The notes: a model not told the origin generated them from the sequence alone. 64,000 bases of DNA from an uncultured virus (IMG/VR IMGVR_UViG_3300046832_003565) (IMGVR_UViG_3300046832_003565), one strand, 5' to 3'. Positions 14,797 through 46,151 are shown, numbered from the stretch's first letter. Program-made: numbers and translations.

Positions 14797-14944
14797 ATAA
14801 TTGACGGTTTTATAAATCAGCGGTAGATCTCTACCGCTGATTATGCTTTTGAGCAAATATATTTTTTTTCAGGAATAGGTTTGTTTTTTCTGGCGTTACC
14901 CTAAATGCTTTGGTAAAATAGTACATCATTCTTAGGAGAAGATA

Positions 14945-16255
14945 ATGAGCGATACGAAATCTTACCTTGAACTGGACGATGAACCAGTGAAAGTACAACC
15001 AAACCAGTCAGTGTTTAACCCTGTAGCATCCTTTCAAGTTAAGGAAGGTGCTACCGCTAAGCAAGATGCGAATGGCAATTGGATAAACGCCATCGGTCTT
15101 CAGTCTACAGCATCTCATCGCCATGTGTCCAAGATTTGGCAGGACAAATGCACACCATTGGCAGACTTTGTTGCCGATGTTAAAGAGCAGGCACAATTTA
15201 AGCGTGACATTGTTAAGCCTGAATCTGAAATTCGTTTACTTGACATTGATACTCTTATTGATGGAACACCTGTCAATGAATCAGGTTTGAATTCATTGCG
15301 TATGTTCACTGATATGCCATCATCAATGGTTTCATTCTTGCGTGAAAAGAGTTATGGCGAAACTCTCACCAAGATTCTCAATGATGAATTGGATTCTCGT
15401 GAAAATACTTGGAACAATTCTGGTAAACAGCCAAGAGAGTTCCGCGTTCGTGTTCGCCATGATGATGATGGTAATGATGTCATTCGTGCCATTGTATCTG
15501 AAAGATATGGTGTTATCGACAATCATGAAGCAATTGACATGATTGCAAATTCCTTACCATCGTTGTCAGATGCTCTTGCCTCACACATTTCCCATGATGG
15601 TGATGATATGTTTGGCAATGTACTTTTGCCAGATTACATGAAATCTGAACCTGATTCAGACTACGGTGTAGGGATTTCATTTAGAAACTCTGAAATCCGC
15701 AATGCTACATTCAAAGTATCACCATTCTTGTTCCGAGCAATTTGTCTCAATGGTATGATTTGGGGTAGACAAGATTCTGCCATCCAAATCAATCAACGTC
15801 ACATGGGCAAAATCAATACACAAGAATTGCAAGAACAGGTACGCCTAGCAATTGCTGTTGCATTGACACAAGGTAATGATATGTTAACCTTGATGGGATA
15901 TTCCAAGAAAGTCAAAGTGAACAATGTTCTTAATGTTATCGCTCTCTTAGCAAGAGACAATAAGATGACCATGGAACAGGGTAAAGCATGGCACAAGGGT
16001 TACTTGGAAACTTTGCAAGAAACAACGGGTGATATAGCAGAAAATACCGCATTTGGTATTGTCAATGGTCTCACTCGTTCTGCACAATCATATTCTGGTA
16101 GTCTACGTGAGGCAATGGAAACTACAGCTTCAATGATTCTTGCACCTGCCATTGATTCTGATTTGCAATCCATGTCTAAGAGATGGGGTCAACTTGATGA
16201 CCGAGCCAAAGACCTGAAACAGGCAACAGCGCAACAGTATGCATTTGTTGCATAA
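14945..16255 (+). CDS. DUF932-like phage protein
   Basis: RAIVSERY..IDN, NSEI, RAICLNG, H.G motifs; AGGAG RBS. Confidence 0.7.
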   Translation: MSDTKSYLELDDEPVKVQPNQSVFNPVASFQVKEGATAKQDANGNWINAIGLQSTASHRHVSKIWQDKCTPLADFVADVKEQAQFKRDIVKPESEIRLLDIDTLIDGTPVNESGLNSLRMFTDMPSSMVSFLREKSYGETLTKILNDELDSRENTWNNSGKQPREFRVRVRHDDDGNDVIRAIVSERYGVIDNHEAIDMIANSLPSLSDALASHISHDGDDMFGNVLLPDYMKSEPDSDYGVGISFRNSEIRNATFKVSPFLFRAICLNGMIWGRQDSAIQINQRHMGKINTQELQEQVRLAIAVALTQGNDMLTLMGYSKKVKVNNVLNVIALLARDNKMTMEQGKAWHKGYLETLQETTGDIAENTAFGIVNGLTRSAQSYSGSLREAMETTASMILAPAIDSDLQSMSKRWGQLDDRAKDLKQATAQQYAFVA

Positions 16256-16440
16256 CTAAACCACTACCACAAAACCCTTCAGATAGCAATGTCTGGGGGG
16301 TCTTTTTTTTAATTTGACCATTGTTTTATTCAGGGGTATAGGCATACCCCTGAAATATGGTTTTAGCAAATAAAAACAAATTACCCTAAAAACTTGCATA
16401 GTAAGGATATTTTTGATATATTAGTAGTGAGGAATTTACT

Positions 16441-18438
16441 ATGAAGATTGATGTTAGCAATGATTTGACCATCTCCGGTGGTTCAATTTCATCATCCAAA
16501 TACGGTATCAGCGAAGAGAATGCGCCATTCGTCATTAAGATGATGATTGACAATTTGTATTCAAACAAGCCTTTGGCTATCATTCGTGAATATATCACAA
16601 ATGCATGGGATGCTCATGTCGATGCTGGTATTTCTGACAAGCCAATTGAAATTACCGTACCTACCATGTTCCGTCCAACATTGTGCATTCGTGATTTTGG
16701 TAAAGGTCTTTCACAAGAAGATGTTCTGCATTTCTACACCCAGATGGCAGATTCCCGCAAGCGTCACACTGATGATTTTGTAGGTGGGTTTGGCATTGGA
16801 TGTAAATGTGCATTCTGCTATGTGCCATCTTTCACCGTCACATCTTTCCACAATGGCAAAAAGATGGTGTTCAATGCATCATCGTCTGGTGCTGTACCTG
16901 AAATGAATCTGTTCTATGTGGAAGACTCTACCGAGACAGGTTTTATGGTGCAGATTGATGTTAAGTCTGATGATGTTTACACTTTCCGCAATACCTTGAT
17001 GGATTTTCTTCAGTTCTTCAACCCAAAGCCTATCATCATAAGTGACAGTTATTTCAGCATCCCCGTCTGTGCTAACAAGCTCTTGGAAATGGATGATTGG
17101 TATTGCGTAGATGACCGATACTCCAAGAACCAAATAATTCTTGGTAACGTCCCTTACAATTTTGATGTAAGTATGCTCAAGCTCAATGCCGATGAGAACA
17201 AATTGTATGAAAGCCTTCACACTGTAAAATTTGTCATTCAAATGTCACCCAATGATTTGAATGTGACTCTCAACCGTGAATCTTTAGAATACACTCCGAA
17301 GACTATCAACGCATTGAAAAGCAAATACTTGGAATGCCTATCTGAAGTCAAAATTGCTTTGATTGCAAAGTACAACAATGTAACATCGGTATGGGAAGCC
17401 AAACTACTATACAAGAAATTAGGACAGAAATTCAATTTGTTCCCCGAAGTCGATGGTGTTAAGATTTCAAGTTACAATGCCAATGTTTCAGATTTCAAAT
17501 TCAAAGAGCGAATGTGTAAAAATTCAAAACGCTGGAGCAGTGAATCAAGTGTGATTTGTTGCGACAGTACAGTGATATTTGTAGCACGACCTAACATCAC
17601 CGCCAATTCAATCCGACCAAGAATTGAAGACTACTTTGAAATCAATGGCATAGACTCCGAATGCAGTACAAACAAATATCATTACTTTGTCTTTCGTACC
17701 AATGAAGACGCAGATGAATTTGTAAACTCCACACATATCCGTGGTGCTAACATCGTTGAACTAGATACCATACCTTACATAAGAGTTACAGCCAAAACAT
17801 CCCGTATCATAAGAATTCAATCCCCATGCTACGTTTATCAGCATTCTTACTACGGTAATGGCACTTTTACTGATTGTAAGAAAGATTTAGGTAATGATTC
17901 TGGCGTTTATGTTCCAATAGCGCACTATAAGCCACATAATATGTACCATCTCGGTAAAATGGATACTTATGAGAAAATTAAGACCGAACTGGGCTTAGAT
18001 AACATTTATGGTATCAAAAATGTCGATTTACCCAAGCTTGGTGACAATTGGAAGAAATTAGATGTCTATCTGCAAGAATACTTTGATAGTTATGTAGCAG
18101 AACATCCAGATGCGCTCTTAACTTACGTCCTTACCAGACACATTCCAAGAGCATTCAAATCTTTCAATGAGAAGCTTGACTTTGATTACAAATACAAAGA
18201 TTTATATGCTAAGATTGCCAATAACAGCGATTCTTGGGACTATCGTGTATCCAAAATACGCAGTTTAGTAGGTTATGGTGCAACTTATTCATGCCCTGAA
18301 GCAGATTTATTGATTAAAACGCATAAAGAATGTGTTGAAGAATACTCTTTCCTTGATTTAGTTGATACCCATTCAAATCCAAGCGATAATCAATGGAAAA
18401 TCATTCATAAATACATCAAAATGCACGAATTAGCGTAG
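16441..18438 (+). CDS. rIIA: rIIA-like protein with N-terminal GHKL ATPase
   Basis: LYSNKPLAIIREYITNAWDAH, IRDFGKGLS, GGFGIGCK, NRESLEY; directly upstream of rIIB. Confidence 0.9.
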   Translation: MKIDVSNDLTISGGSISSSKYGISEENAPFVIKMMIDNLYSNKPLAIIREYITNAWDAHVDAGISDKPIEITVPTMFRPTLCIRDFGKGLSQEDVLHFYTQMADSRKRHTDDFVGGFGIGCKCAFCYVPSFTVTSFHNGKKMVFNASSSGAVPEMNLFYVEDSTETGFMVQIDVKSDDVYTFRNTLMDFLQFFNPKPIIISDSYFSIPVCANKLLEMDDWYCVDDRYSKNQIILGNVPYNFDVSMLKLNADENKLYESLHTVKFVIQMSPNDLNVTLNRESLEYTPKTINALKSKYLECLSEVKIALIAKYNNVTSVWEAKLLYKKLGQKFNLFPEVDGVKISSYNANVSDFKFKERMCKNSKRWSSESSVICCDSTVIFVARPNITANSIRPRIEDYFEINGIDSECSTNKYHYFVFRTNEDADEFVNSTHIRGANIVELDTIPYIRVTAKTSRIIRIQSPCYVYQHSYYGNGTFTDCKKDLGNDSGVYVPIAHYKPHNMYHLGKMDTYEKIKTELGLDNIYGIKNVDLPKLGDNWKKLDVYLQEYFDSYVAEHPDALLTYVLTRHIPRAFKSFNEKLDFDYKYKDLYAKIANNSDSWDYRVSKIRSLVGYGATYSCPEADLLIKTHKECVEEYSFLDLVDTHSNPSDNQWKIIHKYIKMHELA

Positions 18439-18627
18439 TAAATTCCTCATTCTATGCTGATAAGGAGAGACTTAGGTCTCTCCTTTTTTTTGCTCATTTT
18501 ACAGCTCAGGGGTATAGCTATACCCCTGACAATAGGTTTTGTCAAATAAATATTTCTTTACCCGAATGCTTGCAGTTACGGGATAATGACGATAAGATGT
18601 TGTGTTAGTGAATTTTAGGAGAGAGAA

Positions 18628-19794
18628 ATGATTAACATTTTTGGTCATCAAGCTGTATTGGAAGGTGAGAATTCCTTCATTACAATTATTGTGGATGGTG
18701 GCATTCAGCATACAATTCGTCATGGTGCTTTGAACTTTGCTAAGGCTGTAGACTTTTACATCGCCCAGAACTGGGAAGAGTTAATCAATGTCATCAGTCC
18801 TGAGAATTATATCAAAAAATTGTACGCCAAGTATGAGCAGATTGAAGTTAAAGACGGCAATGTGTTTGTGAATGATGAGGTCATGCATTCATTAGATGCA
18901 CAACGTATCATTGAATGTCTTGCCAAGGGTGCAGATGCAACCCATATCTTCAAGTTTGTTATTCGATTGCAGAAGAACCCATCCAGCCGTGCAGTTCAAG
19001 AACTGTACAAATTCCTTGAACATAAGAACCTTGGCATTTCCGCCGAAGGTACACTGATTGCATACAAGGCATTGCGTAACAATTACACTGACAAGCACAC
19101 TGGCAAATTTGACAATAGCGTTGGGAATGTGCTTGAAATGCCACGAAATAAAGTGGATGATGATAAGGAACATGGATGCTCTTATGGCTTCCATGCTGGT
19201 TCCCTCAAGTATGCTACCGAGTTTGCATCTGGTAATGACCGTGTAGTATTGGTGGAAATCGACCCTGCCGATGTAGTGTCAATTCCAACCGATTGCGAAT
19301 TCCAAAAACTCCGAACCTGCCGATACAAAGTCATCTCGGAATTTGAGCGTCCCTTGGAAGAGCATATCCCATATGATTCTAGTCTGGAAACAGATGATGT
19401 AGATTTGTGGGAAGACGATGAGTTATCTTGCCCAGAATGCGACTGTTGTTCAATCGATTGCGATTATTGCAATTGCTGTAATGAATGTTGCGATTGTGGG
19501 GATTTTGATGCAGATGTGTGCATGGGAGACCCTGAAGAGCCAAAGACCGAAATCCAATTGGAATTGAATCTTGACAATAAGATGACCTCAAATTGGGCAG
19601 ATGCAAGATTCCAATATCTTGTAATGTTGCCTTGGCTTTTTGCTCATCGACGACCAGCACTTGGAAATGCTCTCAAAAATTTCTACAAGGATATTGATGA
19701 CCATCATAAAATAAATCCAATTTTTGCTATCCTTAAACAATTTACATCTGATGAGGATGCTTATAAGATTTATAAGGAATATACAAATTCTTAG
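18628..19794 (+). CDS. rIIB: rIIB-like protein with Cys-rich insertion
   Basis: NPSSRAVQELYKFLEH, AYKA, MPRNKVDDD, CSYGFHAG, IDPADVVSIP, KLRTCRY. Confidence 0.92.
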   Translation: MINIFGHQAVLEGENSFITIIVDGGIQHTIRHGALNFAKAVDFYIAQNWEELINVISPENYIKKLYAKYEQIEVKDGNVFVNDEVMHSLDAQRIIECLAKGADATHIFKFVIRLQKNPSSRAVQELYKFLEHKNLGISAEGTLIAYKALRNNYTDKHTGKFDNSVGNVLEMPRNKVDDDKEHGCSYGFHAGSLKYATEFASGNDRVVLVEIDPADVVSIPTDCEFQKLRTCRYKVISEFERPLEEHIPYDSSLETDDVDLWEDDELSCPECDCCSIDCDYCNCCNECCDCGDFDADVCMGDPEEPKTEIQLELNLDNKMTSNWADARFQYLVMLPWLFAHRRPALGNALKNFYKDIDDHHKINPIFAILKQFTSDEDAYKIYKEYTNS

Positions 19795-19928
19795 TAAACG
19801 TGATTTGTCAAGTGCCTCCCCAGAGAAATCTGGGGATTTTTTTTTGCTCATTTCAAAACTCAGATGGTATACACATACCATCTGAAATATATTTTGTCCA
19901 AATAAAAATAATATGATATAATCAATCT

Positions 19929-20354
19929 ATGATTATGACCTATCATTATTTTCAGAATATTGATGCTGAAACACATTATGAGAAAATGAAACAGGGCGAT
20001 TCTATCAAGATGTTGTCTTATGTTCCAGATTTAAATACATATGTTCATGCAGGCAAAATTGACTTTGATACTACAGAAGAGTTTGGTGTAGAATACCCAG
20101 ATTCTTTATGGGATTGTGTTTTCGCGATAGGTATTGAAAATCATTTTAATGACAATTATGCCTCAATAAAATTCATCCCATCAGAGAATAATCTTTCCCG
20201 TAAAATTCGTCCCACTGATATTTTACTATTGGATAACATGGCTTGGATGTATGCCACTGAGACATCAATTGACCGTTTTGGTTGCAAACTACCTTTTCAA
20301 TTTCTAGAGACTGACTTGAAAATAATCCTTGACAAAGTAGTCGAATTGAAGTAA
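19929..20354 (+). CDS. Hypothetical protein, leaderless
   Basis: TATAAT 6 nt before ATG. Confidence 0.6.
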   Translation: MIMTYHYFQNIDAETHYEKMKQGDSIKMLSYVPDLNTYVHAGKIDFDTTEEFGVEYPDSLWDCVFAIGIENHFNDNYASIKFIPSENNLSRKIRPTDILLLDNMAWMYATETSIDRFGCKLPFQFLETDLKIILDKVVELK

Positions 20355-20385
20355 TATATATCTGTTGCTGATGCAATGTTTGTAT

Positions 20386-20466
20386 CCTCCGGTGGTGGAA
20401 CGGTATACACGACGGACTTAAAATCCGTTGGCGCAAGCCTTACGAGTTCGAATCTCGTCTGGAGGA
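20386..20466 (+). tRNA. tRNA-Leu(TAA)
   Basis: CCTCCGG/CTGGAGG acceptor, ACGGA-CTTAAAA-TCCGT anticodon arm, long variable arm, TTCGAAT T-loop; CCA not encoded. Confidence 0.92.
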
Positions 20467-20470
20467 CTTT

Positions 20471-20542
20471 GGGTTGGTAGCTCAGAGGTAGAGCAGTGCC
20501 CTTTTAAGGCATTGGTCGTGGGTTCGAATCCCACCCGACCCA
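20471..20542 (+). tRNA. tRNA-Lys(TTT)
   Basis: GGGTTGG/CCGACCC acceptor, GTGCC-CTTTTAA-GGCAT arm, GTGGG-TTCGAAT-CCCAC. Confidence 0.95.
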
Positions 20543-20572
20543 TATCCTGTTTTATAGAAAGTTAAAACATAA

Positions 20573-20890
20573 ATGGCAAGAAGACGAAGTTTGTACGTCA
20601 GTCCATATTCACTTTATAGAACAAGCAGAACTCCAGGTGAATATTTTTTCTTTTCATTTGTAATTAATTTATTCATTGTTGCTTGTCAATTAACGTGGGC
20701 ACTAGTTGTATTTTTGATATCTATGATTCCATCTTTGGTTGAAATAATAATATCTATATCAATTCTTTGTTATCACGTTCTTGAGACATTTTTCAAAGTT
20801 GCATACGAATATTTAAAGCCAAAAATTCTTTGCATTTATGAAAAAATCAGAGTAAAATACTATCAATACAAAGTAGGGAGTTCAAAGTGA
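20573..20890 (+). CDS. Hypothetical membrane protein
   Basis: Two hydrophobic segments. Confidence 0.55.
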   Translation: MARRRSLYVSPYSLYRTSRTPGEYFFFSFVINLFIVACQLTWALVVFLISMIPSLVEIIISISILCYHVLETFFKVAYEYLKPKILCIYEKIRVKYYQYKVGSSK

Positions 20891-21096
20891 AAATATTAAT
20901 CGCTTTGCTTTTCGCAGGTTTATGTTTGTCGTCTTTTGCTAACACTAAAAAACATCACGCTGGAAGATGTAGTGGAAGCGATTCATATTGTAATTCTTGC
21001 ACAAATTGTAAATATTGCAAGCATTGTAAACGTGGTGGAACTTGTGCTACGTGCAAAAGGACTGACTCCGAAGTGAAAAATTCTTCTAAAAAATAA
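20887..21096 (+). CDS. Small exported Cys-rich protein
   Basis: Signal peptide followed by CSG..YCNSCTNCKYCKHC..GGTCATC; GGGAG RBS. Confidence 0.7.
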   Translation: MKILIALLFAGLCLSSFANTKKHHAGRCSGSDSYCNSCTNCKYCKHCKRGGTCATCKRTDSEVKNSSKK

Positions 21097-21213
21097 TCCA
21101 TTTTTCACTTGTCTTATCTCCACAAGTGAAACCAATCCCCTTCTCCGACAAGAAGGGGATTATCTTTTAAATATTCAATTTGCATACTCTTTTGCAATGT
21201 GATATAAAAAGAT

Positions 21214-21804
21214 ATGGAAAACCACACGCACAATCACACGCATAATCACACGCACATTCACATAAACGGTAATCATAATACTGTCAATGTAACTCAATCA
21301 AATGATGTTGTAAATCAATCAAATGATGTTTCAGGTGGAGTTGTAGGTTGTGGCGGTATTGGCTGTTTTTTTTGGATTTTTCTAATATTCTTAATAGGTT
21401 GTATTGCTCCTTTATGCAATAGGTCTTATCCATCTCAACAATCTGATAATCAAAAATGGTTTGAGCCTGTACACGGAAGTCATACAAATCAAATTAACTA
21501 CAGAAAATCTTGTCAATTGTGCAAAGATGAATTGTGTGATGATTATATTTTGAAAGAGCATATGGAGCCTACTCGGGGAGAATTACATTGGGGTAATTTT
21601 ATTACAAAAGAAAAAGAAAAATGTCCTATATGTAAGTTTAATTTAAAATTGAGTAAAACAGAACTTAAGAAAATATATTCTGAATCTATCAAATCTATTC
21701 AATATATACCAATATTTTTTGAAGAATACCCAATGATAGATAATGATATTCTTCCACATGGTTCAAAATCTGTTAATTGGATTAATAAAACTAAATCAAT
21801 TTAG
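21214..21804 (+). CDS. Membrane protein with His-rich N-terminus and CxxC motifs
   Basis: HTHNHTHNHTHIH, one TM segment, CQLC and CPIC. Confidence 0.6.
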   Translation: MENHTHNHTHNHTHIHINGNHNTVNVTQSNDVVNQSNDVSGGVVGCGGIGCFFWIFLIFLIGCIAPLCNRSYPSQQSDNQKWFEPVHGSHTNQINYRKSCQLCKDELCDDYILKEHMEPTRGELHWGNFITKEKEKCPICKFNLKLSKTELKKIYSESIKSIQYIPIFFEEYPMIDNDILPHGSKSVNWINKTKSI

Positions 21805-21838
21805 CATTGGTCGTGGGTTCGAATCCCACCCGACCCAT
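21804..21838 (+). repeat. 35-bp duplicate of the tRNA-Lys 3' half (att-like)
   Basis: GCATTGGTCGTGGGTTCGAATCCCACCCGACCCAT identical to 20509-20543. Confidence 0.9.
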
Positions 21839-21946
21839 TTTTCACTTGGTTCTTTACTCCTTTCTACCAAGTGAAAATCAATCCCCTTCTCCGACAAGAA
21901 GGGGATTCTTATTTGCATTATATATAACAGATGATATAATGTAAAC

Positions 21947-22441
21947 ATGGAAAACATCATTATTGCTCCCACTTACGATGTCAATGTTAAGTTTAGTTGG
22001 AAATATCCCGGTAAGCCAATTATAAATGTTGAAAAGCAAGGTTATGTCCAAACAACTAATACCGAAGATAAATTGATTGCTGAAGAATTCATCAATACAT
22101 TTATTGGAAATTACGAGGTTGGTATTTGTGAAGTGACAGAGATGAATATTCTATCGCTTAAGAGAATAAAAACCTATGATGAGTGGATAGAAAAATATAA
22201 ACCAATTAAGAACGAATTTGAAGAATATGGTTCTTTTGAGGGATGTACTTTCGATTACACTGAAGAAGACCAATGGGAATTTGTCAAGAATCAAAATCCA
22301 GCAAATGTTTGGACAATGGTGTGGGCTGAAGATACTCATGCTATCATTCCCGGTTTCCATTGGGTAAATAGAGATAGTTATTTTGTCACTGAGAAATCTG
22401 TTGAAAAAGAAGACTTGTCAAGTGAATATTTGGTGATATAA
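21947..22441 (+). CDS. Hypothetical phage protein, leaderless
   Basis: VWT..I.PGFHWVNR..Y.VTE C-terminal block; TATAAT 6 nt before ATG. Confidence 0.7.
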   Translation: MENIIIAPTYDVNVKFSWKYPGKPIINVEKQGYVQTTNTEDKLIAEEFINTFIGNYEVGICEVTEMNILSLKRIKTYDEWIEKYKPIKNEFEEYGSFEGCTFDYTEEDQWEFVKNQNPANVWTMVWAEDTHAIIPGFHWVNRDSYFVTEKSVEKEDLSSEYLVI

Positions 22442-22447
22442 TAATTT

Positions 22448-22512
22448 CACAAGGTCGCTCATAACCTTGTGTTTACTCCCTCTTCTCGCTCATAGGAAGA
22501 GGGATTTTTTTT
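22448..22512 (+). ncRNA. Candidate two-hairpin small RNA
   Basis: TTGTCA/TGnTATAAT promoter, two stems each displaying TCGCTCATA, T-run end. Confidence 0.55.
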
Positions 22513-22633
22513 GCTCATTCTGTTATTTAGCGTAAAAAAACTTTACGCTAAGACATGCTTTCTATCAAAAATAAATATATCACTTGACATTACACTAAAC
22601 TTGCAATATACTTAATACAAGTGAGATTTTTCG

Positions 22634-23007: not shown

Positions 23008-23140
23008 TGATAACATAAGAGTGTTCAAGATGACTACAGCATTGAGAACAAAATCCAGAATGTGGTGATTCTGGAACAATGTGTGAAGAATGTTTTTATC
23101 TCCTAACTGTGTTCGTTCCGTCAGCATTCTTCACACATTT

Positions 23141-23207: not shown

Positions 23208-23214
23208 TTGGTTA

Positions 23215-23287: not shown

Positions 23288-23536
23288 TTGTTTGTGTTTG
23301 TTTGGTTGTTATGTGTCCTCTTTCACCCTTCTTGAATAAAATCAGGGAGGGTTTTTTTTGCTCAAAATTATTCTTAGACTTATTTCAATAAGTCTAATAT
23401 CTCATTGCGTCTTAAAATAATAATAATTACTAGGTTTTTGTGTAAAAACTTGCCTATACATACACGCAGAAGGTATACTAGTGTCATAAGGGATTGAGAA
23501 ACCTTATAAAAACAATATACTCTAGAAAGAAAAGTC

Positions 23537-23890: not shown

Positions 23891-24107
23891 AAGCATAGAG
23901 AAGAGGGCGAAAGCCCTCTTTTTATGTTTAATGTGCCAGCTGCAAATATTTGACAAGAATATTTTCTAGAGATAAAAATATATCTCTAAAATATGGAATG
24001 AGCAAATTTTTAGTTATTTTTAGTCATTTACCGTATTTTACTTGCACAGTTAGTGGAACTAGTGTATTATCTAAGTGTTAGTTATCACCTTTGTTTAGGA
24101 GACTGAG

Positions 24108-24647: not shown

Positions 24648-24833
24648 GATAACTAGTTCGCAACTAAGGACGCAGAAATGCGTTCTTTTTTTTTGCTCAA
24701 AACCAAACTCAGGGGTATGCTCATACCCCTGAAATACTTAAATGTCAAATAAAAATAATCCTTGACAACCCTAAAAAAAATTGATAATATATAGACATCA
24801 AAAGGGTAACACCTTAAGGAAAGAAAAAGTAAG

Positions 24834-25391: not shown

Positions 25392-25555
25392 AATATCTTA
25401 TAATCTATTGTATCCCCTTCTTGCAAGGGGATATTTTTTTGCCATTACTCAAATCTAGGGTAAAAAAATCTTTACCCTATGTTGACAAATGAGCAAATGT
25501 ATTTCATAATATTTTTGCACAGGGAAACTTGTAGTATTTGTTTGTAGAGAATATT

Positions 25556-26829: not shown

Positions 26830-26930
26830 AAACTTTTGGAGAAAATATTCTCCAGAGGTTTTTTTACAACCTCTGATTTTTATTTTTGTCAAATATTTGC
26901 ATTTTACCAATAATAAGATATAATTAGGGT

Positions 26931-27642: not shown

Positions 27643-27777
27643 ATTTCACATGAGAGATCTTTATGAAAAAAATAATTTGCTCAAAATGTAACTCAGAGAT
27701 ATAAAGTAATATCTCTGATAAATGTTTATATCAAATATTTGCTATTTAGTCGAAAGTGTGTTACAATGCCCTCAGTA

Positions 27778-29658: not shown

Positions 29659-29783
29659 TCGGGATTTTTTTTGACAAATGATGAAATCAGGGGTATGAGC
29701 ATACCCCTGCAATATGGATTTAGCAAATATTTTATCTGATATTAATGCTTGCACTAAATCTGCCCATAAAGTATACTGGTGAT

Positions 29784-32007: not shown

Positions 32008-32115
32008 AAATATCCTGAATTTTCTTTTGACAAAAGGGAGATTCAGGGGTATTGTCAATACCCCTGATAAATGAAATTAGCAAATATTTAGTGTAAGGTA
32101 TGGTAGAATATATTC

Positions 32116-33766: not shown

Positions 33767-33934
33767 ACAGAATGATTACTATATTATATCCAATATTCAG
33801 GTCCAGTTTTAAAAACTTATTTGCTCAAAAAGAATATCAGGGATATTAGTAATATCCCTGAGGTAAAGAATTGTCAAATATTTTTGGCAAAAAAATAGCC
33901 CCTATTTTGGGGCTTGAGGTTGACATTTTGATGT

Positions 33935-34781: not shown

Positions 34782-34919
34782 ATCATTCTCCTTACCGAAC
34801 ACAAATATTATAAGGGTAATAGAGCCAGATTGCAAATTTATTTATTTATTTGACAAAAATAAAAATTGGCGGAAAATTGCTAAAATACCGCCAAGATACA
34901 CTTACAGCAAATTAAAATA

Positions 34920-35904: not shown

Positions 35905-36041
35905 GTCTCATTATATCAAATATCAGATATAGTGCAAATTAATTAAATACTTGCTAATTCCCTAACGCAGAGGTATAAATCATACCTCTGACAAATATTT
36001 TTAGCAAAAAAAAATCCCAAGATTGCTCCTGGGGTTCATTA

Positions 36042-36925: not shown

Positions 36926-37076
36926 CGTTCTATCTCCCTTACACCAATAGTATATAGTAAATGGAAATGTCTGTCAAGAAAATATATTTATTTGCCAAAG
37001 CTAAAAATTGGCGGTAAATACCGCCAAAAAATTCTTTTGTCAAAAAAAATCCCCAGATTTTCACCTGGGGTTCTTT

Positions 37077-37367: not shown

Positions 37368-37494
37368 TGTCCTATCTCTCTTACACCAATAGTATATAGT
37401 AAGTGGAACTATAAGTCAAGAAAATATATTTATTTGCTCAAATAAAAAATCAGGGGTATGAATTTACCCCTGAAAAACAAATAAAGCAAATAAA

Positions 37495-38262: not shown

Positions 38263-38412
38263 AATATTTTCCTCTTGGCTATATTATATCAAAACATTAG
38301 GGTAAAGCAAGAAAATAAATATATTTGACAAAAATATTTGTCGGGTGTAAACAGCCAAAATACACCCGATTTTTTATTATGTCAAAAAAATATCCCCATT
38401 TCTGGGGATATT

Positions 38413-39442: not shown

Positions 39443-39612
39443 AAACTAAATCCTCCAAGTTACATCTTACACTATATCACTAACATTTGCAAGAATTATT
39501 TATTTGCTCAAAAGGCAACTCAGGGATATAATTTATATCCCTGACCAATAAAACAAGCAAAAAAAACTCCTGAAGAAACTAATCCTCAGGAGCTGCGCAT
39601 TATATCACAGGT

Positions 39613-41295: not shown

Positions 41296-41440
41296 AGACT
41301 TAAACATTGCATCTGGTACAGAAATGATGCGAGCCAGCCAGATGAGACCCACCATCTTTAAAGATAAAACAAAATACAATCGAAAACTAAAACACAAAAA
41401 TCGTCAGGATAAAAATTCTGGCGATTCTTTTTTTTGCTAA
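41273..41440 (+). CDS. ArfA/BrfA-like small basic protein with internal terminator (55 aa, not in ORF track)
   Basis: GAGGT RBS; FKDKTKYNRKLKHKN; 12-bp hairpin 41399-41426 and T8 run lie before the TAA. Confidence 0.6.
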   Translation: MKRKKYVEDLNIASGTEMMRASQMRPTIFKDKTKYNRKLKHKNRQDKNSGDSFFC

Positions 41441-41558
41441 AACCAATTCTCGGGGGTACTAGCTACAAAACCCCCGAAAAATATTTTTGTCAAATTTATT
41501 TTTTTAAATAAAAAAACCTTGACTTTTGTCAAGGCTTGTGATAGGGGAGCAGTATTTA

Positions 41559-41774
41559 TTACTTAATATTAGCTAATTGTTTGTCTTGTTCATATGATGC
41601 CAAACCTACAGCGATATACAAAATTGTTGCTAATGAACACAAAACTAGCAGAAAAAAAGCAGATGTCTCAATACTGTATGTATTATTTGTAAGCTTACAA
41701 TCATTAAGAACAATAAACAAGAAAATCTGCATTGCAATAGCAACAGAAAAGAAAACTTTAGTATACTTTGACAT
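41559..41774 (-). CDS. Membrane protein, 2 TM
   Basis: Hydrophobic segments; start uncertain. Confidence 0.5.
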   Translation of the reverse strand: MSKYTKVFFSVAIAMQIFLFIVLNDCKLTNNTYSIETSAFFLLVLCSLATILYIAVGLASYEQDKQLANIK

Positions 41775-41829
41775 TATATTACCTATTGTATTGGAAGAAA
41801 GTCCCCATGTTTCAGGGGACATAGCCTGA

Positions 41830-42042
41830 TTACTTACCTGCGTTGAGAGCCTTGTACTCTTCATCAACCTTGTTAAGCTTATCTTTCAATTCTTGATGTG
41901 CTTGTTTGATAAGCGTGATTCTTGACTGTTCATTGTGAAAGTCAAATTCCAGATACACTTCTGTCCGAATCATAAACTCTTGGAGAAACATCTCACGCGC
42001 ATATGTTTTGTCTTCAAACGTCATTTTTGTTCTTGTCATCAC
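41830..42042 (-). CDS. Hypothetical protein
   Basis: GGGAG RBS. Confidence 0.6.
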   Translation of the reverse strand: MMTRTKMTFEDKTYAREMFLQEFMIRTEVYLEFDFHNEQSRITLIKQAHQELKDKLNKVDEEYKALNAGK

Positions 42043-42189
42043 CGTTCTCCCTTACGCCTTAAGTATATCAAATTTACACGAGCTTGCCAGCATTTAAGGT
42101 AATAAACAATTATTTAAATGTTTACCCAATTCATTGGCATATGGTGGAAACTTGGCTTATAATAAGACATCACAGACGGAGAAGACACT

Positions 42190-42558
42190 ATGCAAACACT
42201 TATCGACCAACTCACCACCTCAATCGCCAACATCGCCAAGCAGACCACGGTTGTAAACAAGAATCAAGCTTTAGTTACAACTCTCACACTTGAGAAGCTT
42301 GACGCAGAAAACAAGCTTGAATCCAAGACAGCAACCCTCTATGCAGATGGTCTTGTACAAGGTTCAAACGAAGCAACCCGCAAAGCACACCTTGCCACAT
42401 TGCTGGTGGAAGAGGTCAAGACTGTACAGGTTGTAGAAACCAAGATTATCAAAGCAAAGTCCCAACTGGCACAATCTGAGAACACCATTCGTGCTACTAG
42501 AGACACCCTGTATGCCTTGCAAACCATTCTCAAAGTTACCCTGCCACCAGCAGAGTAA
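42190..42558 (+). CDS. Coiled-coil protein
   Basis: GGAG RBS; GSNEATRKA motif. Confidence 0.65.
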   Translation: MQTLIDQLTTSIANIAKQTTVVNKNQALVTTLTLEKLDAENKLESKTATLYADGLVQGSNEATRKAHLATLLVEEVKTVQVVETKIIKAKSQLAQSENTIRATRDTLYALQTILKVTLPPAE

Positions 42559-42751
42559 CCCTCTCCCATCAATCACATCCCTTGGCTCTTGTCAAGGGTT
42601 TTTTTATTTAATTTTTTAATTTGACAAAAATAAAATGCGGCGGTTTTAACCGTATTTACCGCCGAAAAATACATTTGTCAAATTTATTTTTTTCTTGACA
42701 AACTTATTAAAGTATGATAGCTCCCCTTGCGGGGAGCCTTTCATTGCACCA

Positions 42752-43063
42752 TCAAAATAAAAGTGGTTCAAATATCATGGTGTATGTTAATGCTAAATCA
42801 CCATGGTTTTCAAAACACTGTACTATTTCATCTGCATGAGATTGTTCAAAATCTCCTGTTTTTACACCCTTTGGCAATCCCTTTACAATATCTGACAACA
42901 TCCATGTATACTTGATTTCAGTAGCGCAATTTATGGAGTTTCTGAGGTTGAAACTATCAAAGGATTTTATCAACCACTCTATAACGAAATCATTTGCCAC
43001 ATCGCTTACATTATTGCGCATGAAATGTTGCTGAATGTCAACTGTCTTTTGTTCGATAACCAT
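42752..43063 (-). CDS. Hypothetical protein
   Basis: GGGAG RBS, divergent promoter. Confidence 0.6.
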   Translation of the reverse strand: MVIEQKTVDIQQHFMRNNVSDVANDFVIEWLIKSFDSFNLRNSINCATEIKYTWMLSDIVKGLPKGVKTGDFEQSHADEIVQCFENHGDLALTYTMIFEPLLF

Positions 43064-43212
43064 GTCTCTATCTCCCTTACGCTATTATTATATCAAACCT
43101 ACACTATGTTGCAAGCAATAAGTGGAAAATAATATTAATGAAGCTTTACATTATATTATTTGACTTTGGGTAAAGCCTGCTGTATACTATCAGTGTTCAA
43201 GGAGATAAGACA

Positions 43213-43689
43213 ATGAATGTAACCGAAATCGCTCGCATCCTTTCCGCCAAGCAAGGTGGCTCGTTCTACTCCGTAAAGGTAAACCGTCCCGGCAAGGTTC
43301 GCAAGGGCGTTGCAGATAACATTACCAAAGTGTCTGTATTCCAAGGTATGCTGGCAGAATATTCTAACCGCAAGCCTGTGAAGGATGCTGTTGAGGCTGG
43401 TGAGCGCGATGCGCCTGCAATGCCAACATGGGCAGAATCTGTTGAGATTGAAGGTATGCGCTTTTGGCGTAATGTTAAGAATGGCAACCTATACCTTCCA
43501 GTGTGCGTAACTGGAAATCCATCCAAAGCACAATGGTATCGCAACGGTGAGCCTGTAAACCTTGATGATGTCAAGGACGCTCTACTAGCATCAGAATATG
43601 CTACCAAGCCTACCAAGGAGGAGACCGAAGAAAAAGGTCAAGCACTTTTTGTAGCGGTTAGCGTGGACAATATAGAATCGCTAGCCTAA
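43213..43689 (+). CDS. Hypothetical early protein
   Basis: TATACT promoter, AAGGAG RBS, higher-GC biased codons. Confidence 0.75.
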   Translation: MNVTEIARILSAKQGGSFYSVKVNRPGKVRKGVADNITKVSVFQGMLAEYSNRKPVKDAVEAGERDAPAMPTWAESVEIEGMRFWRNVKNGNLYLPVCVTGNPSKAQWYRNGEPVNLDDVKDALLASEYATKPTKEETEEKGQALFVAVSVDNIESLA

Positions 43690-43900
43690 ACCCTACATCA
43701 TATCACAGCCCTTGATGAAAGTCAAGGGTTTTTTATTAAATTATTTAATTTGACAAGCATAAAAATCGGCGGTATTCCCGGCTTGTACCGCCGAAAAATA
43801 TTTTTAGCAAATTTATTTATTTTCTTGACATACTTATTAAAATATGATAGCCCCCCTTGCGGGGAGCTTAGTCTTGACAACTACAAAATATGTGGTAGTG

Positions 43901-44146
43901 CTATGCTACCTTTTCCTTTTCAACATTCTCAGTGGCTCTTTCAATGAGAACGTCCCAGTCAATCAGTTCAAAAGCACACCACATGATGTCACGCTGGTCT
44001 TTGGACAAGCCTTTTGTTAGTTGATTCTGGATGTACCATTTGATATCACTTGTTCCGCCAGCCTTTACCATATTTTCCATTGCTCCCATATAGAGAACAT
44101 TGATATGCCAAGTCATTTTGTTGTACCAGCCGTTGTGTTTGTTCAT
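43901..44146 (-). CDS. Small phage protein (NGW.N..TW family), leaderless
   Basis: HNGWYNKMTW..IDW pattern. Confidence 0.65.
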   Translation of the reverse strand: MNKHNGWYNKMTWHINVLYMGAMENMVKAGGTSDIKWYIQNQLTKGLSKDQRDIMWCAFELIDWDVLIERATENVEKEKVA

Positions 44147-44175
44147 AATTTATTATATCACCTTTTATATACTTG

Positions 44176-44430
44176 TCAGAATATTGTTTTTTTATAATCA
44201 ATTGGTTTTGATTTTTTTTCAAACGATGTAAGCTTCTTATTCTTTACAATCCAACGTCCAACCAATTCACCAGCTGGGTTTTCATCGTCTGCTACATAGA
44301 TTGCACAATAGTCATTATTGTATGCACGAGATAAGATATAGGCTTTGGCTTCCTTAAGGGTTTTTTCAGTTCCAATCGGTCTTGTGCTATTAGGGTCTTG
44401 ACCTAAAATCATTCGGTATATCTTGCTCAT
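44176..44430 (-). CDS. Hypothetical protein, leaderless
   Basis: TATACT 6 nt before ATG. Confidence 0.6.
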   Translation of the reverse strand: MSKIYRMILGQDPNSTRPIGTEKTLKEAKAYILSRAYNNDYCAIYVADDENPAGELVGRWIVKNKKLTSFEKKSKPIDYKKTIF

Positions 44431-44542
44431 GACATCAGTATACCGAATTTACACTATAATGCCACACTTTGGATAAAAATAATTGTAGATTTACATTATA
44501 TAAATTACTTGCAATAAGTAGAATTTGGGATATACTTAATAC

Positions 44543-44707
44543 ATGAACGACCACCCAATGTTTTCACTCTTCGTCACCCAAGCCTATCAGGAACTGTCAA
44601 AGCAAAACCCTGAGATGTCACAAGAAGACCTGATGGAAAATGCTGTTTCACTTGCATATGAAAGATGGGATTCCTACTGTGAATCTCAGCACTTTCAGGA
44701 AGACTAA
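44543..44707 (+). CDS. Small acidic protein (54 aa, leaderless, not in ORF track)
   Basis: TATACT 6 nt before ATG; MNDHPMFSLF...; terminator follows. Confidence 0.55.
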   Translation: MNDHPMFSLFVTQAYQELSKQNPEMSQEDLMENAVSLAYERWDSYCESQHFQED

Positions 44708-44792
44708 ACACTATATCCCTTGATATAAATCAAGGGACTTTTCATTTAAAATATAATTTGCATTACCCTAATATTTGACTTATAATATAAAC

Positions 44793-44885
44793 ATGAATCC
44801 AATCATCATCTTGAACATTCTCGGAATCGTTGTTTTGTTTCTCGGTCTGCTGTCAACTCTGACATTGAATAAGGAGAATAAGTAA
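44793..44885 (+). CDS. 30-aa membrane peptide (leaderless, not in ORF track)
   Basis: MNPIIILNILGIVVLFLGLLS; TATAAT 6 nt before ATG. Confidence 0.5.
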   Translation: MNPIIILNILGIVVLFLGLLSTLTLNKENK

Positions 44886-45034
44886 TGTATAAAGTTATCC
44901 AGTTAAAACAACAAGCACCAGTTGACCCTAAAAATCAATGGTGGTATGTTGCAAAAGATGAAGGTAAGTATTTAAAATTAGTCAAGGAGTTCCGCTCAGT
45001 AGCCGAAGCTGAAGAATTCATAAAACAATTATAA
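44885..45034 (+). CDS. Small protein (49 aa, not in ORF track)
   Basis: AAGGAG RBS, TAATG coupling. Confidence 0.55.
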   Translation: MYKVIQLKQQAPVDPKNQWWYVAKDEGKYLKLVKEFRSVAEAEEFIKQL

Positions 45035-45206
45035 TGTAAGGCTCCCCAAAAGGGGAGCTATCATACTTTAACAATATTGTCAAGGAAAAAAATAAATTTG
45101 CTGAAAATATTTTTCGGCGGTAGCAGCAAAAACCGCCGATTTTTATAACTGTCAAATTAAAAAATTAAATAAAATATCCCTTGACTTTTGCCAAGGGATG
45201 TGGTAA

Positions 45207-45407
45207 CTAGCCTGGTAGGGTTTTGACTAGTAGCAGGTTGTGAGAAGCATGATATGTATACTTGAATCTATCAGTATAGATGCTTCTACCCAAGGTAGCG
45301 ATAACATCTGCCTCAGACATCGATGGAACAAAACCAATCTGCCCAAGGGTGAAGAAATGCATCTGACCTGTTGGCTCTTCAACTTCAACTTTAGTGTTAC
45401 TGTTCAT
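45207..45407 (-). CDS. Hypothetical protein, leaderless
   Basis: Divergent promoter; terminator follows. Confidence 0.55.
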   Translation of the reverse strand: MNSNTKVEVEEPTGQMHFFTLGQIGFVPSMSEADVIATLGRSIYTDRFKYTYHASHNLLLVKTLPG

Positions 45408-45511
45408 GTCTATATATTACAGCCTAGTTTACCTAAAAGCAAGATGTATTTTATAAATAAATATTACACTAATTAATTTGCATATAGTGTATTCTGGGAT
45501 ATACTTAATCT

Positions 45512-45820
45512 ATGAAGCTTGAACAGAACCCATACATTATAAAGTCTATGGTGGTTTGCACAGTGACACCGGAGATTACTAAAGAATTCTATGCTGACCT
45601 TGACACGTCTTACATTTCCAATCTTACTGCGGTAAATTTGCGAAAGTTTGTAGCGGAAGCTTTGCAATCACTTGTGAATTCTGATTTTGTTATTAAGATT
45701 TCAGCTACATTGGAATATACTGTTGGTGACTGTAACCATATGTACCAAGTGATTATTACAGATGAAGGTATTGAAGAATTCAATAGCAATCCAGAAGTGC
45801 CTGAAATGGCAAAGAAATAA
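45512..45820 (+). CDS. Hypothetical protein, leaderless
   Basis: TATACT 6 nt before ATG. Confidence 0.6.
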   Translation: MKLEQNPYIIKSMVVCTVTPEITKEFYADLDTSYISNLTAVNLRKFVAEALQSLVNSDFVIKISATLEYTVGDCNHMYQVIITDEGIEEFNSNPEVPEMAKK

Positions 45821-45870
45821 TTTGACAATATAGAATACTTGGATTATACTATTAGCAAGGAGATAGAATA

Positions 45871-46020
45871 ATGGATTACATTGAAGCAGAACTGGAAGCA
45901 AGAATCTTTCCTAGTGTAGACGTTGACCCGCTAGAATTCTTGGAAGACATTGTAGACGAAGACTTGGAAGATGAAGAAGAAGAAAACCCTTGCCCTGTAG
46001 GCTGGGACGTTATCGACTAA
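45871..46020 (+). CDS. Very acidic 49-aa protein (not in ORF track)
   Basis: Own TTGACA promoter, AAGGAG RBS and terminator; 20 D/E versus 1 basic residue. Confidence 0.6.
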   Translation: MDYIEAELEARIFPSVDVDPLEFLEDIVDEDLEDEEEENPCPVGWDVID

Positions 46021-46151
46021 CTACCATATCCCTTGACAAAAGTCAAGGGTTTTTTATTTGCTAATTAAATTTGACAAAAAAATTTCGCGTGGTATTCTGT
46101 TTTTACCACGACATATATGTTTGGCAAAAATTTATTCTACGGTATAATTAA

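Follow-up and report, generated by a model that had tools for sequence, protein, structure and literature searches.

A conserved palindromic element repeated 25 times in the early region of an uncultured giant lake phage

We found that an uncultured giant lake phage carries a palindromic element of roughly 56 bases, with the consensus TTGMYM-N10-hairpin-N10-KRKCAA, in exactly 25 copies between positions 14,801 and 46,127 of the 64,000-nt stretch of DNA analysed (the window). The element is real and strongly conserved, and it matches no described family. Its function we infer from sequence: a phage protein may bind it as a boundary or roadblock site that has two-fold symmetry and works at the DNA level, a possible reading which we put forward tentatively.

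The first-pass annotation had listed 25 copies, and every one of them was found where it had been placed (Table 1). Its account of their geometry was equally accurate. Counted from the first T of TTG, the stem begins 16 nt further on in 25/25 copies, and the closing CAA ends 16 nt past the stem in 23/25, the exceptions being those already named: 22511 (17 nt) and 23358, whose degenerate right box reads CGTCTT. The first stem pair (alignment columns 25/55) is non-complementary in 7/25 copies. Total hairpin length is steady at 24-26 nt (19/25) regardless of how it is split between arm and loop, and the remaining six hairpins measure 20, 28 and 29 nt (the last in four copies). Successive copies lie 442-2,667 bp apart, in agreement with the 0.4-2.7 kb given earlier.

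Table 1. Copies of the palindromic element, in window coordinates (no strand assigned). "Pattern" in the last column is the overall layout of boxes and hairpin, which all 25 copies show, and not the strict pattern described below; the covariance model recovered every copy.
Element	Coordinates	Remarks	Detected by
e14801	14801..14856	TTGACG-N10-TCAGCGGTAGA/TC/TCTACCGCTGA-N10-GAGCAA	pattern, covariance model
e16314	16314..16369	DUF932 gene / rIIA gap	covariance model, 75.4 bits
e18490	18490..18545	rIIA / rIIB gap; terminator T-run leads directly into TTG	
e19844	19844..19901		pattern, covariance model
e22511	22511..22568	right spacing 17	pattern, covariance model
e23358	23358..23413	degenerate right box	covariance model, 55 and 38 bits
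e23950	23950..24005		pattern, covariance model
e24693	24693..24748		pattern, covariance model
e25439	25439..25496		pattern, covariance model
e26836	26836..26892	T-rich tail, no canonical terminator upstream	pattern, covariance model
e27677	27677..27734		pattern, covariance model
e29671	29671..29726		pattern, covariance model
e32027	32027..32083		pattern, covariance model
e33821	33821..33877	convergent junction	pattern, covariance model
e34850	34850..34910	7-bp arms, 15-nt loop	pattern, covariance model
e35951	35951..36007		pattern, covariance model
e36992	36992..37043	shortest hairpin (20 nt)	pattern, covariance model
e37434	37434..37489		pattern, covariance model
e38325	38325..38385		pattern, covariance model
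e39504	39504..39560		pattern, covariance model
e41434	41434..41493	convergent junction	pattern, covariance model
e42621	42621..42681	convergent junction	pattern, covariance model
e43750	43750..43810	convergent junction	pattern, covariance model
e45098	45098..45155		pattern, covariance model
e46071	46071..46127	final copy	pattern, covariance model

A strict pattern (TTG, 13 nt, at least seven Watson-Crick pairs after the first, 13 nt, CAA) matched 22 copies in the window, whereas 200 dinucleotide shuffles averaged 0.135 matches and never gave more than 2. A covariance model of the element, which the first-pass annotation had suggested building, was run without filters over the window and recovered the 25 loci on both strands with 38.1-75.4 bits; the best non-element match reached 20.3 bits (E 1.3). 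Scores were alike on the two strands. The model was empty in the window beyond 14,793-46,135, in line with the claim that the copies do not leave the early region, and to the right of the window no further copies were found in about 10 kb of the related sequence G001 or in 57.9 kb of G003 (from about window 47 kb). Each half-site holds roughly 26 bits of information (sum of per-position values): TTG is near-invariant, and in the arm G20 is kept in 47/50 half-sites, G22 in 43/50 and T24 and A25 in 42/50 each. All 24 zero-mismatch matches to TTG-N13-TYRGNKKTA fall within elements; there are no lone half-sites, the 21 one-mismatch matches outside elements being the number expected by chance (24.6).

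The two parts of the element differ in what is conserved. The inner arms had been described as self-complementary despite their variability, and two-sided changes were indeed seen in 10/12 pairs. The outer boxes, said not to covary, have positions 4-6 unpaired in 18, 11 and 13 of the 25 copies. Pairing between the linkers was no better than in slid controls (25 copies). The core stem (columns 26-32) is perfectly Watson-Crick, with 0 unpaired cells, no bulges and no G-T pair in 201 cells, whereas among 25 ordinary terminators nearby 28/243 pairs are G-U (11.5%), with at least one in 17/25 hairpins. This contrast bears on the alternative that the element is a bidirectional RNA hairpin, transcribed by read-through and acting as a fail-safe terminator, processing site or 3' stabiliser, in which case the symmetry of the DNA would only serve transcripts arriving from both directions. 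A processing variant would be of the RNase III type, with a lower AT-rich stem containing UUG/CAA, an internal loop and an upper stem. TTG and CAA are able to pair in 23-25/25 copies (U-A in 24 and 23, G-C or G-U in 25), in favour of such a hairpin. However, the lack of G-U pairs speaks against it, as do box positions 4-6, which are conserved yet mostly unpaired, and the search of 4,227 Rfam models, which gave no match to the element (only four tRNAs and one weak tmRNA-like match, E up to 0.1).

Comparison with relatives revealed how these parts evolve. G003 is about 88-91% identical to the window in this region (about 10% diverged); its changes amount to 0/72 in the boxes, 2/108 in the arms (one compensatory pair, the G/C to A/T change in e39504), 8/120 in the linkers, and 4/55 plus two length changes in the loops. 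Its copy of e45098 is identical over 74 nt. The comparison indicates strong purifying selection on boxes and arms. Together, covariation, box conservation and the changes in relatives uphold the earlier proposal that selection maintains base pairing in the inner part and, in the outer boxes, a given sequence at a set spacing. In near-identical strains two loops are inverted to their reverse complement: the TC of e14801 is GA in two lake metagenomes, and the ACAC of e19844 is GTGT in G004. Because G-T pairs are missing and two loops are flipped, the data point to an element which acts at the DNA level and is not an ordinary RNA terminator.

All 13 orthologous copies keep their place in relatives. 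This counts against a selfish, MITE-like miniature transposable element spread through intergenic DNA, for which a multi-copy intergenic palindrome with inverted ends might be taken. The aligned copies differ widely (62% mean column identity) and share a geometry with little common sequence in linkers and loops, which are near random (0.0-0.5 bits per position); moreover, neither target duplications nor direct repeats were seen at element ends, and no transposase was found in the sequence searched. With boxes and arms so constrained, this explanation is largely refuted and must be regarded as extremely improbable.

The family is confined to one phage lineage. Across 185,579 bacterial species genomes the pattern was absent except for one chance-like match, and in IMG/VR it was present only in three contigs of this lineage. 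This near-absence from bacteria, with restriction to a single IMG/VR lineage, points to a factor specific to the phage and not to one from the host. Among the ORFs of the region, most of which have no family, no candidate for a binding protein emerged.

The elements are intergenic in 24/25 cases (e33821 shares 4 nt with the end of one ORF) and lie in a variable stretch populated by small early ORFs. At junctions of at least 70 bp they occupy 19/22 tandem, 5/5 convergent and 1/4 divergent sites, and the sole divergent one sits behind an ORF of roughly 51 codons absent from the initial ORF list. The elements thus trail the 3' ends of transcription units. The setting noted in the first-pass annotation, between a terminator and the next promoter, is true of most copies, but the consistent link is to gene 3' ends and not to promoters. 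A canonical terminator lies within 45 nt of 20/25 elements, and in 12 its T-run leads directly into TTG. Separate sigma-70-like promoters follow about 20-70 bp past the dyad; the next start codon, mostly behind its own promoter, lies about 20-290 nt past the element (19 nt for e29671, 24 nt for e46071, up to 288 nt for e25439).

The link to 3' ends, with every convergent junction occupied, would also suit the RNA hairpin. A loose terminator scan was passed by 10/25 elements in at least one direction, and a T-rich tail is found in 9/29 element-direction cases: 5/8 without a canonical terminator upstream versus 4/21 with one (Fisher p = 0.067). On the other hand, the tail is not T-rich in the other 17/21 cases behind a canonical terminator, which suggests that most copies are rarely transcribed and non-terminating, and tandem junctions would need a hairpin working in one direction only. 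We regard an RNA-level role as unlikely, and for most copies intrinsic termination was rejected on the scarcity of T-rich tails and the 0/201 G-U count.

The boxes themselves resemble promoter parts. Each half might be read as a -35 hexamer with an AT-rich tract upstream and, after 17 bp, TA, and the element as an RNA polymerase-binding pseudo-promoter, capturing holoenzyme or polymerase sliding after release, or as a bidirectional promoter pair. The boxes are TTGACA or TTGCTM, preceded by A/T-rich DNA, with TA(T) 17 bp downstream in 42/50 half-sites; the box region doubles as the -35 of the next gene in 3/25 copies (e19844, e26836 and e46071); and a contig from an RNA run starts at 25,473, as expected from the left box of e25439, although this is a low-depth contig end. 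Nevertheless, 15/50 half-sites have T as the sixth base of the putative -10, which equals background, TAnnnT occurs in the sense direction in only 2/14 plus-block copies, the boxes face inward, and real promoters lie downstream. Elements are, in addition, missing at divergent junctions, where promoters are. The -10 count and the 1/4 divergent junctions led us to reject sigma-70 promoters as such, and polymerase capture is very unlikely.

The first-pass annotation suggested a cassette recombination or DNA-organising site, the second of which is a possible reading of the sequence. At a recombination site, differences in gene content between relatives would be expected to break. This expectation failed: three such differences break at tRNA copies, promoter -35 boxes and a different repeat, and 0/3 breakpoints fall inside an element. 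One -35-box breakpoint is 21 bp from an element (the cassette replaced in G003 begins 21 bp right of e42621). Since none of the three breaks inside an element, the proposal that cassettes are gained and lost at a structure-specific site, by a recombinase or junction nuclease acting on a folded strand or cruciform, is unsupported. Such a process could resemble that at attC, or that suspected for the G-run/C-run stem-loops of PeSL, and several features would fit it: an architecture of two duplex parts and an unpaired spacer, with a loop that varies and boxes that are conserved at fixed distance; a cassette-like setting in a variable early region which holds a Tad2-like anti-defence gene; and loop flips, which show arm-arm interaction in vivo. 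One metagenome contig also diverges from the window within the right linker of e26836 (loose end 26,883). A gene for the junction resolvase RusA is located at 55,757-56,137; RusA prefers CC, and the conserved arm positions G22/G23 give CC on the 3' arm. Against this, neither a tyrosine recombinase nor a Y1 transposase turned up in the about 104 kb covered (window, G001 and G003) of a genome estimated at 350 kb, about 60-70% of which lies outside these sequences, and the orthologous copies stay in place. The stems are perfect and lack the extrahelical bases which attC uses for strand choice, the cassettes have their own promoters and occur in both orientations, and at 20.5-21.9 kb, where variability is greatest, two cassettes lack an element altogether. 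We consider recombination decidedly unlikely.

We propose instead that the element is a boundary site at the ends of early transcription units. It would be recognised by a symmetric protein, probably a dimer and probably encoded by the phage, which would read the two TTTG-type boxes as duplex. The protein would also read the central palindrome, in duplex form or extruded as a hairpin or cruciform with its foot exactly 10 bp from each box. Once bound, it would separate early and anti-defence cassettes that have their own promoters, as a barrier or insulator that works in either orientation, a roadblock behind the terminator with a logic like that of the mycobacteriophage L5 "stoperators". In copies without a canonical terminator upstream, the hairpin with its T-rich linker seems to serve as an RNA terminator too. 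We infer protein binding, the phage origin of the protein and the transcription block from the features described above, some of which sit uneasily with particular forms of the proposal. A duplex-binding dimer does not by itself call for arm covariation, which would need hairpins to form or one arm to be corrected frequently from the other by template switching, and in the six copies with hairpins of 20, 28 or 29 nt the half-sites would be rotated on duplex DNA. A cruciform should extrude most readily at divergent junctions (negative supercoils), yet elements are missing there.

Supercoiling could also be the target itself, the elements being type II topoisomerase sites or cruciform supercoil sinks between strongly transcribed cassettes. 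Gyrase binds REP/BIME elements behind operons, and the phage elements sit after transcription units and between convergent ones, places of positive supercoil build-up, which is consistent with such a role. So are the two-fold symmetry, the AT-rich linkers, the AT-rich centre (TA at arm positions 8-9, 42/50) alongside GC-rich arm bases, and the DNA hairpin energies of -4.1 to -10.2 kcal/mol. However, topoisomerase sites need neither covarying arms nor invariant TTG boxes, and a cruciform requires negative, not positive, supercoils; we give this topological reading little credence.

With respect to known systems, the verdict that the consensus fits neither attC nor PeSL stands, given the boxes TTGMYM/KRKCAA, the lack of a -10 and the perfect stems. 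In integron attC sites a palindrome variable in sequence and length is flanked, at a set distance, by conserved outer boxes; the sites probably function as a folded single strand, and they separate cassettes. The first and last of these features are shared by the element. The attC core sites are, in contrast, RYYYAAC/GTTRRRY, the stems are imperfect with extrahelical bases, and integron cassettes are mostly promoterless and co-oriented. The elements were rejected as attC on core sites and extrahelical bases; no integron integrase was found in the about 104 kb of the estimated 350 kb. Enterobacterial REP/BIME palindromes, too, follow genes and occupy tandem and convergent junctions but not divergent ones. 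They are bacterial, near-identical and imperfect, carry a conserved GTAG and are associated with a RAYT transposase, whereas the phage-borne copies are diverse and PF01797 (RAYT, a Y1 transposase) had no match in the sequence searched, which led us to reject this identity as well.

The PeSL of T4-type phages share more with the element. Each is an intergenic motif of AT-rich DNA from an early region that is variable and made up of small ORFs, with a sigma-70-type -35 hexamer and a stem-loop at the place of the spacer/-10, often a G-run followed by a C-run, and in both every cassette has its own promoter and terminator. Arbiol et al. 2010 (PMC2839356) and Comeau et al. 2014 (PMC4122927) present PeSL as one-directional promoter-terminators with a working -10, Shine-Dalgarno and ATG, and speculate that a DNA-binding protein targets the stem-loop; the legend of fig. 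2 records G-T pairs in the stems (PMC2839356). The element differs in its two inward-facing boxes, its lack of a TAnnnT -10 and of G-T pairs, its separate canonical terminator upstream and promoter downstream, the absence of a Shine-Dalgarno or start codon at its 3' end, and indels which break elsewhere (a small sample of three, one breaking in a -35 box 21 bp away); it was not accepted as a PeSL.

Bidirectional and promoter-coupled terminators likewise place a GC-rich hairpin with A/T-rich flanks at gene ends, with signals sharing the same DNA, and some element copies have a T-rich tail. In the promoter-coupled type, according to the preprint of Fletcher et al. 2026 (10.64898/2026.08.19.745784), the -35 lies in the stem and the -10 after the T-tract. 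The element has neither arrangement, and it departs from bidirectional terminators in its late T-rich stretch (6-7 nt past the stem in most copies), lack of G-U pairs, conserved boxes and position behind another terminator.

L5 stoperators and the P1 C1 and RK2 KorB operators are sites of 13-17 bp which, unlike the element, need no hairpin and have known binding proteins. They occur in many dispersed intergenic copies and act on transcription away from promoters, and the element resembles them as one site repeated many times across intergenic DNA, where a protein is proposed to bind.

We showed that the 25 palindromes of the early region (14,801-46,127) share a single architecture, TTGMYM-N10-hairpin-N10-KRKCAA, about 56 bp in length, with positions and geometry as described in the first-pass annotation. 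The hairpin measures 24-26 nt in 19 of the 25 copies and 20, 28 or 29 nt in the rest (29 nt in four), and there are just two exceptions to the geometry: a right spacing of 17 in e22511 (copies are named by their start coordinate) and a degenerate right box in e23358. A strict test of the architecture recovered 22 copies, compared with a mean of 0.135 (maximum 2) over 200 dinucleotide shuffles. An unfiltered covariance model trained on the 25 copies detected 25 loci in both strands, with scores of 38-75 bits, and the next best hit reached 20.3 bits. The training copies are matched by construction, and the informative results are therefore the score gap below them and the lack of extra copies, none having been found elsewhere in the window, as previously stated. 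Extra copies were also absent from approximately 10 kb of the related contig G001 past the window end and from 57.9 kb of G003, another contig of this phage lineage, which runs rightward from about 47 kb of the window.

Across 2.9 million IMG/VR contigs, a degenerate pattern of the whole architecture matched seven stretches, each on one of three related contigs. Across 185,579 bacterial species genomes it matched a single hairpin, chance-like and from a Bacteroidia MAG; the covariance model matched none of the 150 bacterial candidates scored out of 4,627. The initial stem-only pattern had returned 39 IMG/VR stretches, 34 of which were discarded as unrelated hairpins devoid of boxes. No Rfam family matches the elements, and no described equivalent was found in the open-access literature.

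In the alignment of the 25 copies, the inner helix (columns 26-34) is Watson-Crick paired in 196 of 201 cells, 10 of the 12 inner pairs are changed on both sides, and the core stem contains neither one-sided changes nor G-T pairs, which bears out the view that the inner arms vary yet stay self-complementary. By comparison, 25 ordinary terminator hairpins of the same 33 kb have G-U in 28 of 243 pairs, and 17 of the 25 contain at least one. The lack of G-T in the core therefore indicates that the element stems, unlike the local RNA terminators, must pair on both strands. The main rival explanation is nevertheless a bidirectional RNA hairpin, which we consider unlikely.

TTG and CAA are nearly invariant. 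Box positions 4-6 are of two types (ACA and CTC/CTA) and mostly unpaired, in keeping with the earlier remark that the outer boxes do not covary. A pairing rule for A-type and C-type boxes was abandoned, as the excess (about 14 mixed versus 5 alike) is marginal and unlinked to gene direction or terminator side. Linker pairing equals the level of slid controls, and the 50 linkers are free of indels except in e22511. The logo of the 50 half-sites (box, linker and arm) reads wwTaT-TTG-MYM-Aaa-N7-T-C-R-G-N-G-G-T-A-t; the G-rich arm is always the 5' arm, lone half-sites do not occur and, judged by eye from the logo, the box with its flanks is in many copies a small palindrome itself (TTTG-N1-2-CAAA).

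The comparison with relatives revealed that the elements are more strongly constrained than the adjacent genes. G003 shares 88-91% identity with the window at 38.7-47.2 kb, and its six elements are each orthologous to a window copy. Their boxes are unchanged (0 of 72 positions) and the two arm changes (of 108 positions) together form one compensatory pair, G-C to A-T, in e39504, while the linkers carry 8 changes in 120 positions and the loops 4 in 55, plus two length changes. In the related contig G004 (approximately 98% identical; 98.2-98.5%) none of the seven elements is lost, and e19844 carries its loop in reverse-complemented form (GTGT for ACAC). Similarly, the e14801 loop reads GA, not TC, in two lake metagenomes, and in one 5.7-kb metagenome contig this flip accounts for the sole two differences from the window. 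Such flips demonstrate that the arms interact in vivo. They would be most simply explained by hairpin-templated strand switching during replication, a process that would keep the arms perfectly complementary, and part of the arm “covariation” may thus represent mutational correction and not selection on each pair. The palindromes, boxes and 10-nt linkers must still be selectively maintained. The idea that loop flips switch promoters was rejected, since flipped loops do not create TAnnnT.

Counting junctions of 70 bp or more between the genes of an ORF-based list, we found the element at 19 of 22 tandem, 5 of 5 convergent and 1 of 4 divergent junctions, the sole divergent copy following an ORF of about 51 codons outside the gene list. 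Two of the three element-free tandem junctions lie at approximately 20.9-21.9 kb, in a segment replaced in G004; here an identical 28-nt terminator hairpin, unlike the elements, occurs twice (21134-21161 and 21880-21907), flanking the gene at 21214-21804. Terminator-like sites are three times commoner than in shuffles. A canonical intrinsic terminator stands within 45 nt on an incoming side of 20 of the 25 elements, and in 12 elements the T-run joins directly onto TTG. A separate sigma-70-like promoter serves the next gene; measured from the dyad, its -35 begins at 36-44 bp in the minus-strand block and at about 20-70 bp in the plus-strand block. Given this separate promoter and the terminator-side placement, the element is part of the 3' end of a unit and not of a promoter; the first-pass annotation had set the copies usually between a terminator and the next promoter, which holds for most of them, but it is the gene 3' end with which they are consistently associated.

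As a general identity, a terminator was rejected because, of the 21 cases that follow a canonical terminator, 17 lack a T-rich tail. Such a tail is found in 5 of the 8 cases without a canonical terminator (p = 0.067), and the hairpin seems to double as a terminator where one is required. A box followed by TA 17 bp on resembles a -35 hexamer with the beginning of a -10. A sigma-70 promoter was dismissed, as the last T of the -10 hexamer occurs in 15 of 50 half-sites, which is the background level, the boxes point inward and divergent junctions lack the element; a pseudo-promoter that binds polymerase, ranked after the RNA hairpin, also appears improbable to us.

The region 41400-46150 consists of units of approximately 1.1 kb with common non-coding parts. 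Three copies of CTTGACA-N12-TATGAT, each followed by a GCTCCCC..GGGGAGC hairpin, adjoin e42621, e43750 and e45098, and may represent small RNAs or promoters of an unusual kind. In the same region TTGAC/GTCAA also occurs within the stems of ordinary terminators.

The suggestion of a cassette recombination site, which the first-pass annotation had proposed to check by asking whether gene-content differences break at the elements, was weakened by our analysis. In this small sample, none of the three differences between relatives breaks inside an element. The first replaces window 20,475 to about 21,782-21,907 in G004; one breakpoint coincides with tRNA-Lys and the other with a partial tRNA 3' copy at 21752-21838 that gives a weak tmRNA-like hit in Rfam. 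The second replaces 42,702-43,160 in G003; both ends lie in promoter -35 boxes, the left one 21 bp from e42621. The third, carried by G003, is an insertion of approximately 410 bp with a small ORF near window position 47,049; it is situated between two copies of a second repeat family and looks like a cassette insertion at that repeat. Neither an integrase nor a Y1 transposase was found in the approximately 104 kb available of a genome of probably about 350 kb. A structure-specific recombination site, placed after the RNA hairpin, is on this evidence rather unlikely.

Contigs of three DNA runs contain a joint of 19,848 to 26,876, element into element; its shorter side is 20 letters, and it was taken as a repeat or assembly artefact instead of a deletion form. 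Among the 12 non-tRNA contig loose ends listed, three (14,770; 23,923; 26,883) are within approximately 30 bp of an element, compared with about one expected, numbers too low to count. A lake metatranscriptome run gave low-depth contigs within genes, and its uncovered stretches are uninformative. One such contig begins at 25,473, inside the right arm of e25439 and approximately 35 nt from its left box; this is no evidence of a transcript start, since contig ends are not RNA ends and DNA carry-over is possible.

The window is a piece of a large AT-rich phage genome, whose features are listed in the table. Two IMG/VR contigs of the same lineage, of 52 and 66 kb, are rated 15% and 18% complete, which underlies the genome size mentioned above. 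A tblastn search with rIIA returned 2,632 matching records, all below 60% identity (26.5-31.3% among the 25 matches listed), and hence no close cultured phage. Megablast of 20 kb found nothing similar among 50,697 phage records, and blastn of a 601-bp stretch with two elements gave at best 32-nt matches at E = 0.6. An rIIA-based locus search found nothing in IMG/VR and a single, 100% identical contig in metagenomes. Three records were usable for comparison: G001 (the same record as G002), G003 and G004. The phage is abundant in lake metagenomes, at least 19 of which contain it at 98-100% of words. For the two large ORFs at 592-6,277 no PDB relative was found by sequence. The DUF932 and PcfJ families are better known in conjugative elements than in phages, and the RusA resolvase would be relevant if the palindromes were ever extruded as cruciforms. 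The best named homologues of the DUF1559 pseudopilin are from Armatimonas and Armatimonadaceae (73-74% identity); the gene is probably host-derived, which hints at Armatimonadota as the host phylum. To our knowledge, there is almost no phage biology for this phylum.

Features encoded in the window
Feature	Coordinates	Strand	Remarks
DUF932 protein	14945-16252		
rIIA	16,441-18,435		
rIIB	18,628-19,791		
tRNA-Tyr	23140-23208	+	Unusual anticodon ATA (ARAGORN); lowest Rfam score of the four tRNAs (45 bits)
Small ORF, Tad2-like (Thoeris anti-defence 2) domain	38724-38942	-	Pfam E 1.3e-6; within an element-bounded cassette
Second repeat family (TATAGGGGGGGTGG ... AACCATCC)	46825-47059		Hairpin-forming
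DUF1559 / prepilin N-methylation pseudopilin gene	52005-52970	+	39% GC island in 29% GC DNA
RusA-type Holliday junction resolvase gene	55757-56137	+	
Two PcfJ-like proteins	58553-60175; 60972-63185		
NrdG-like radical-SAM protein, UvdE, DEAD-box helicase, GH108 endolysin			
Four tRNAs			

The anatomy, constraints, placement and exclusions are firm. They have to be explained jointly: a two-fold symmetry extending to the sequence-specific boxes, a constant 10 nt between each box and the stem foot, a free loop, both-strand pairing, near-constant total length, a site just past polymerase release and restriction to a single lineage. Most of these features are accounted for if a symmetric, putative phage-encoded protein bound both palindrome and boxes, either in duplex form or as an extruded hairpin, and thereby formed an orientation-independent barrier or insulator between cassettes; we favour this reading, tentatively. 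A topological device, also ranked after the RNA hairpin, seems improbable as an answer to the same set of features. In broader terms, it is possible, although doubtful, that the elements are a new class of structure-dependent DNA site of a virulent giant phage, at which a putative phage protein reads extrudable hairpins together with two boxes and either divides the early anti-defence region into units that are insulated or looped, or makes cuts that start recombination. The hairpin foot would then lie exactly one helical turn from each sequence box and, if this is true, these would be the first sequence-plus-cruciform boundary elements described in a phage.

In large phages, the early and anti-defence genes, which evolve fast, are arrayed as cassettes of one or two genes each. 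In the phage studied here, an extra and very tightly specified element stands at nearly every cassette end, and ordinary promoters and terminators fail to explain its both-strand pairing, fixed box-to-stem distance and loop flips. If a protein binds it, that binder would organise early gene expression globally in a lineage that probably infects Armatimonadota. The size of the element (approximately 56 bp) allows easy synthesis and in vitro testing without the uncultured host.

Several known site types were considered and set aside. Sigma-54 and sigma-32 boxes were dropped. So was a protelomerase site, since cutting at all 25 copies would leave the genome in pieces. The TAnnTTTG register is inconsistent with a Bacteroidetes-type -7 promoter box, and the genes have Shine-Dalgarno sites. 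TTTGCT matches the familiar consensus of the T4 MotA box, but the TA is 3 bp too distant from the box. The spacing is similar to that of a lambda nut-like boxA plus hairpin, but the TTGCTC boxes have no orientation bias, and the element stands behind terminators, not behind promoters. REP, MITE and integron attC identities were rejected by membership tests. The first-pass annotation had already judged that the consensus fits neither attC nor the promoter-early stem-loop (PeSL) of T4-type phages, and the second identity, too, was rejected. It is for T4-type phages that PeSLs have been proposed to explain how cassette arrays maintain transcriptional independence and are reshuffled. As PeSLs are defined in PMC2839356 and PMC4122927, the elements differ from them in having no -10, attached ribosome site or G-T pairs, and in being two-fold symmetric.
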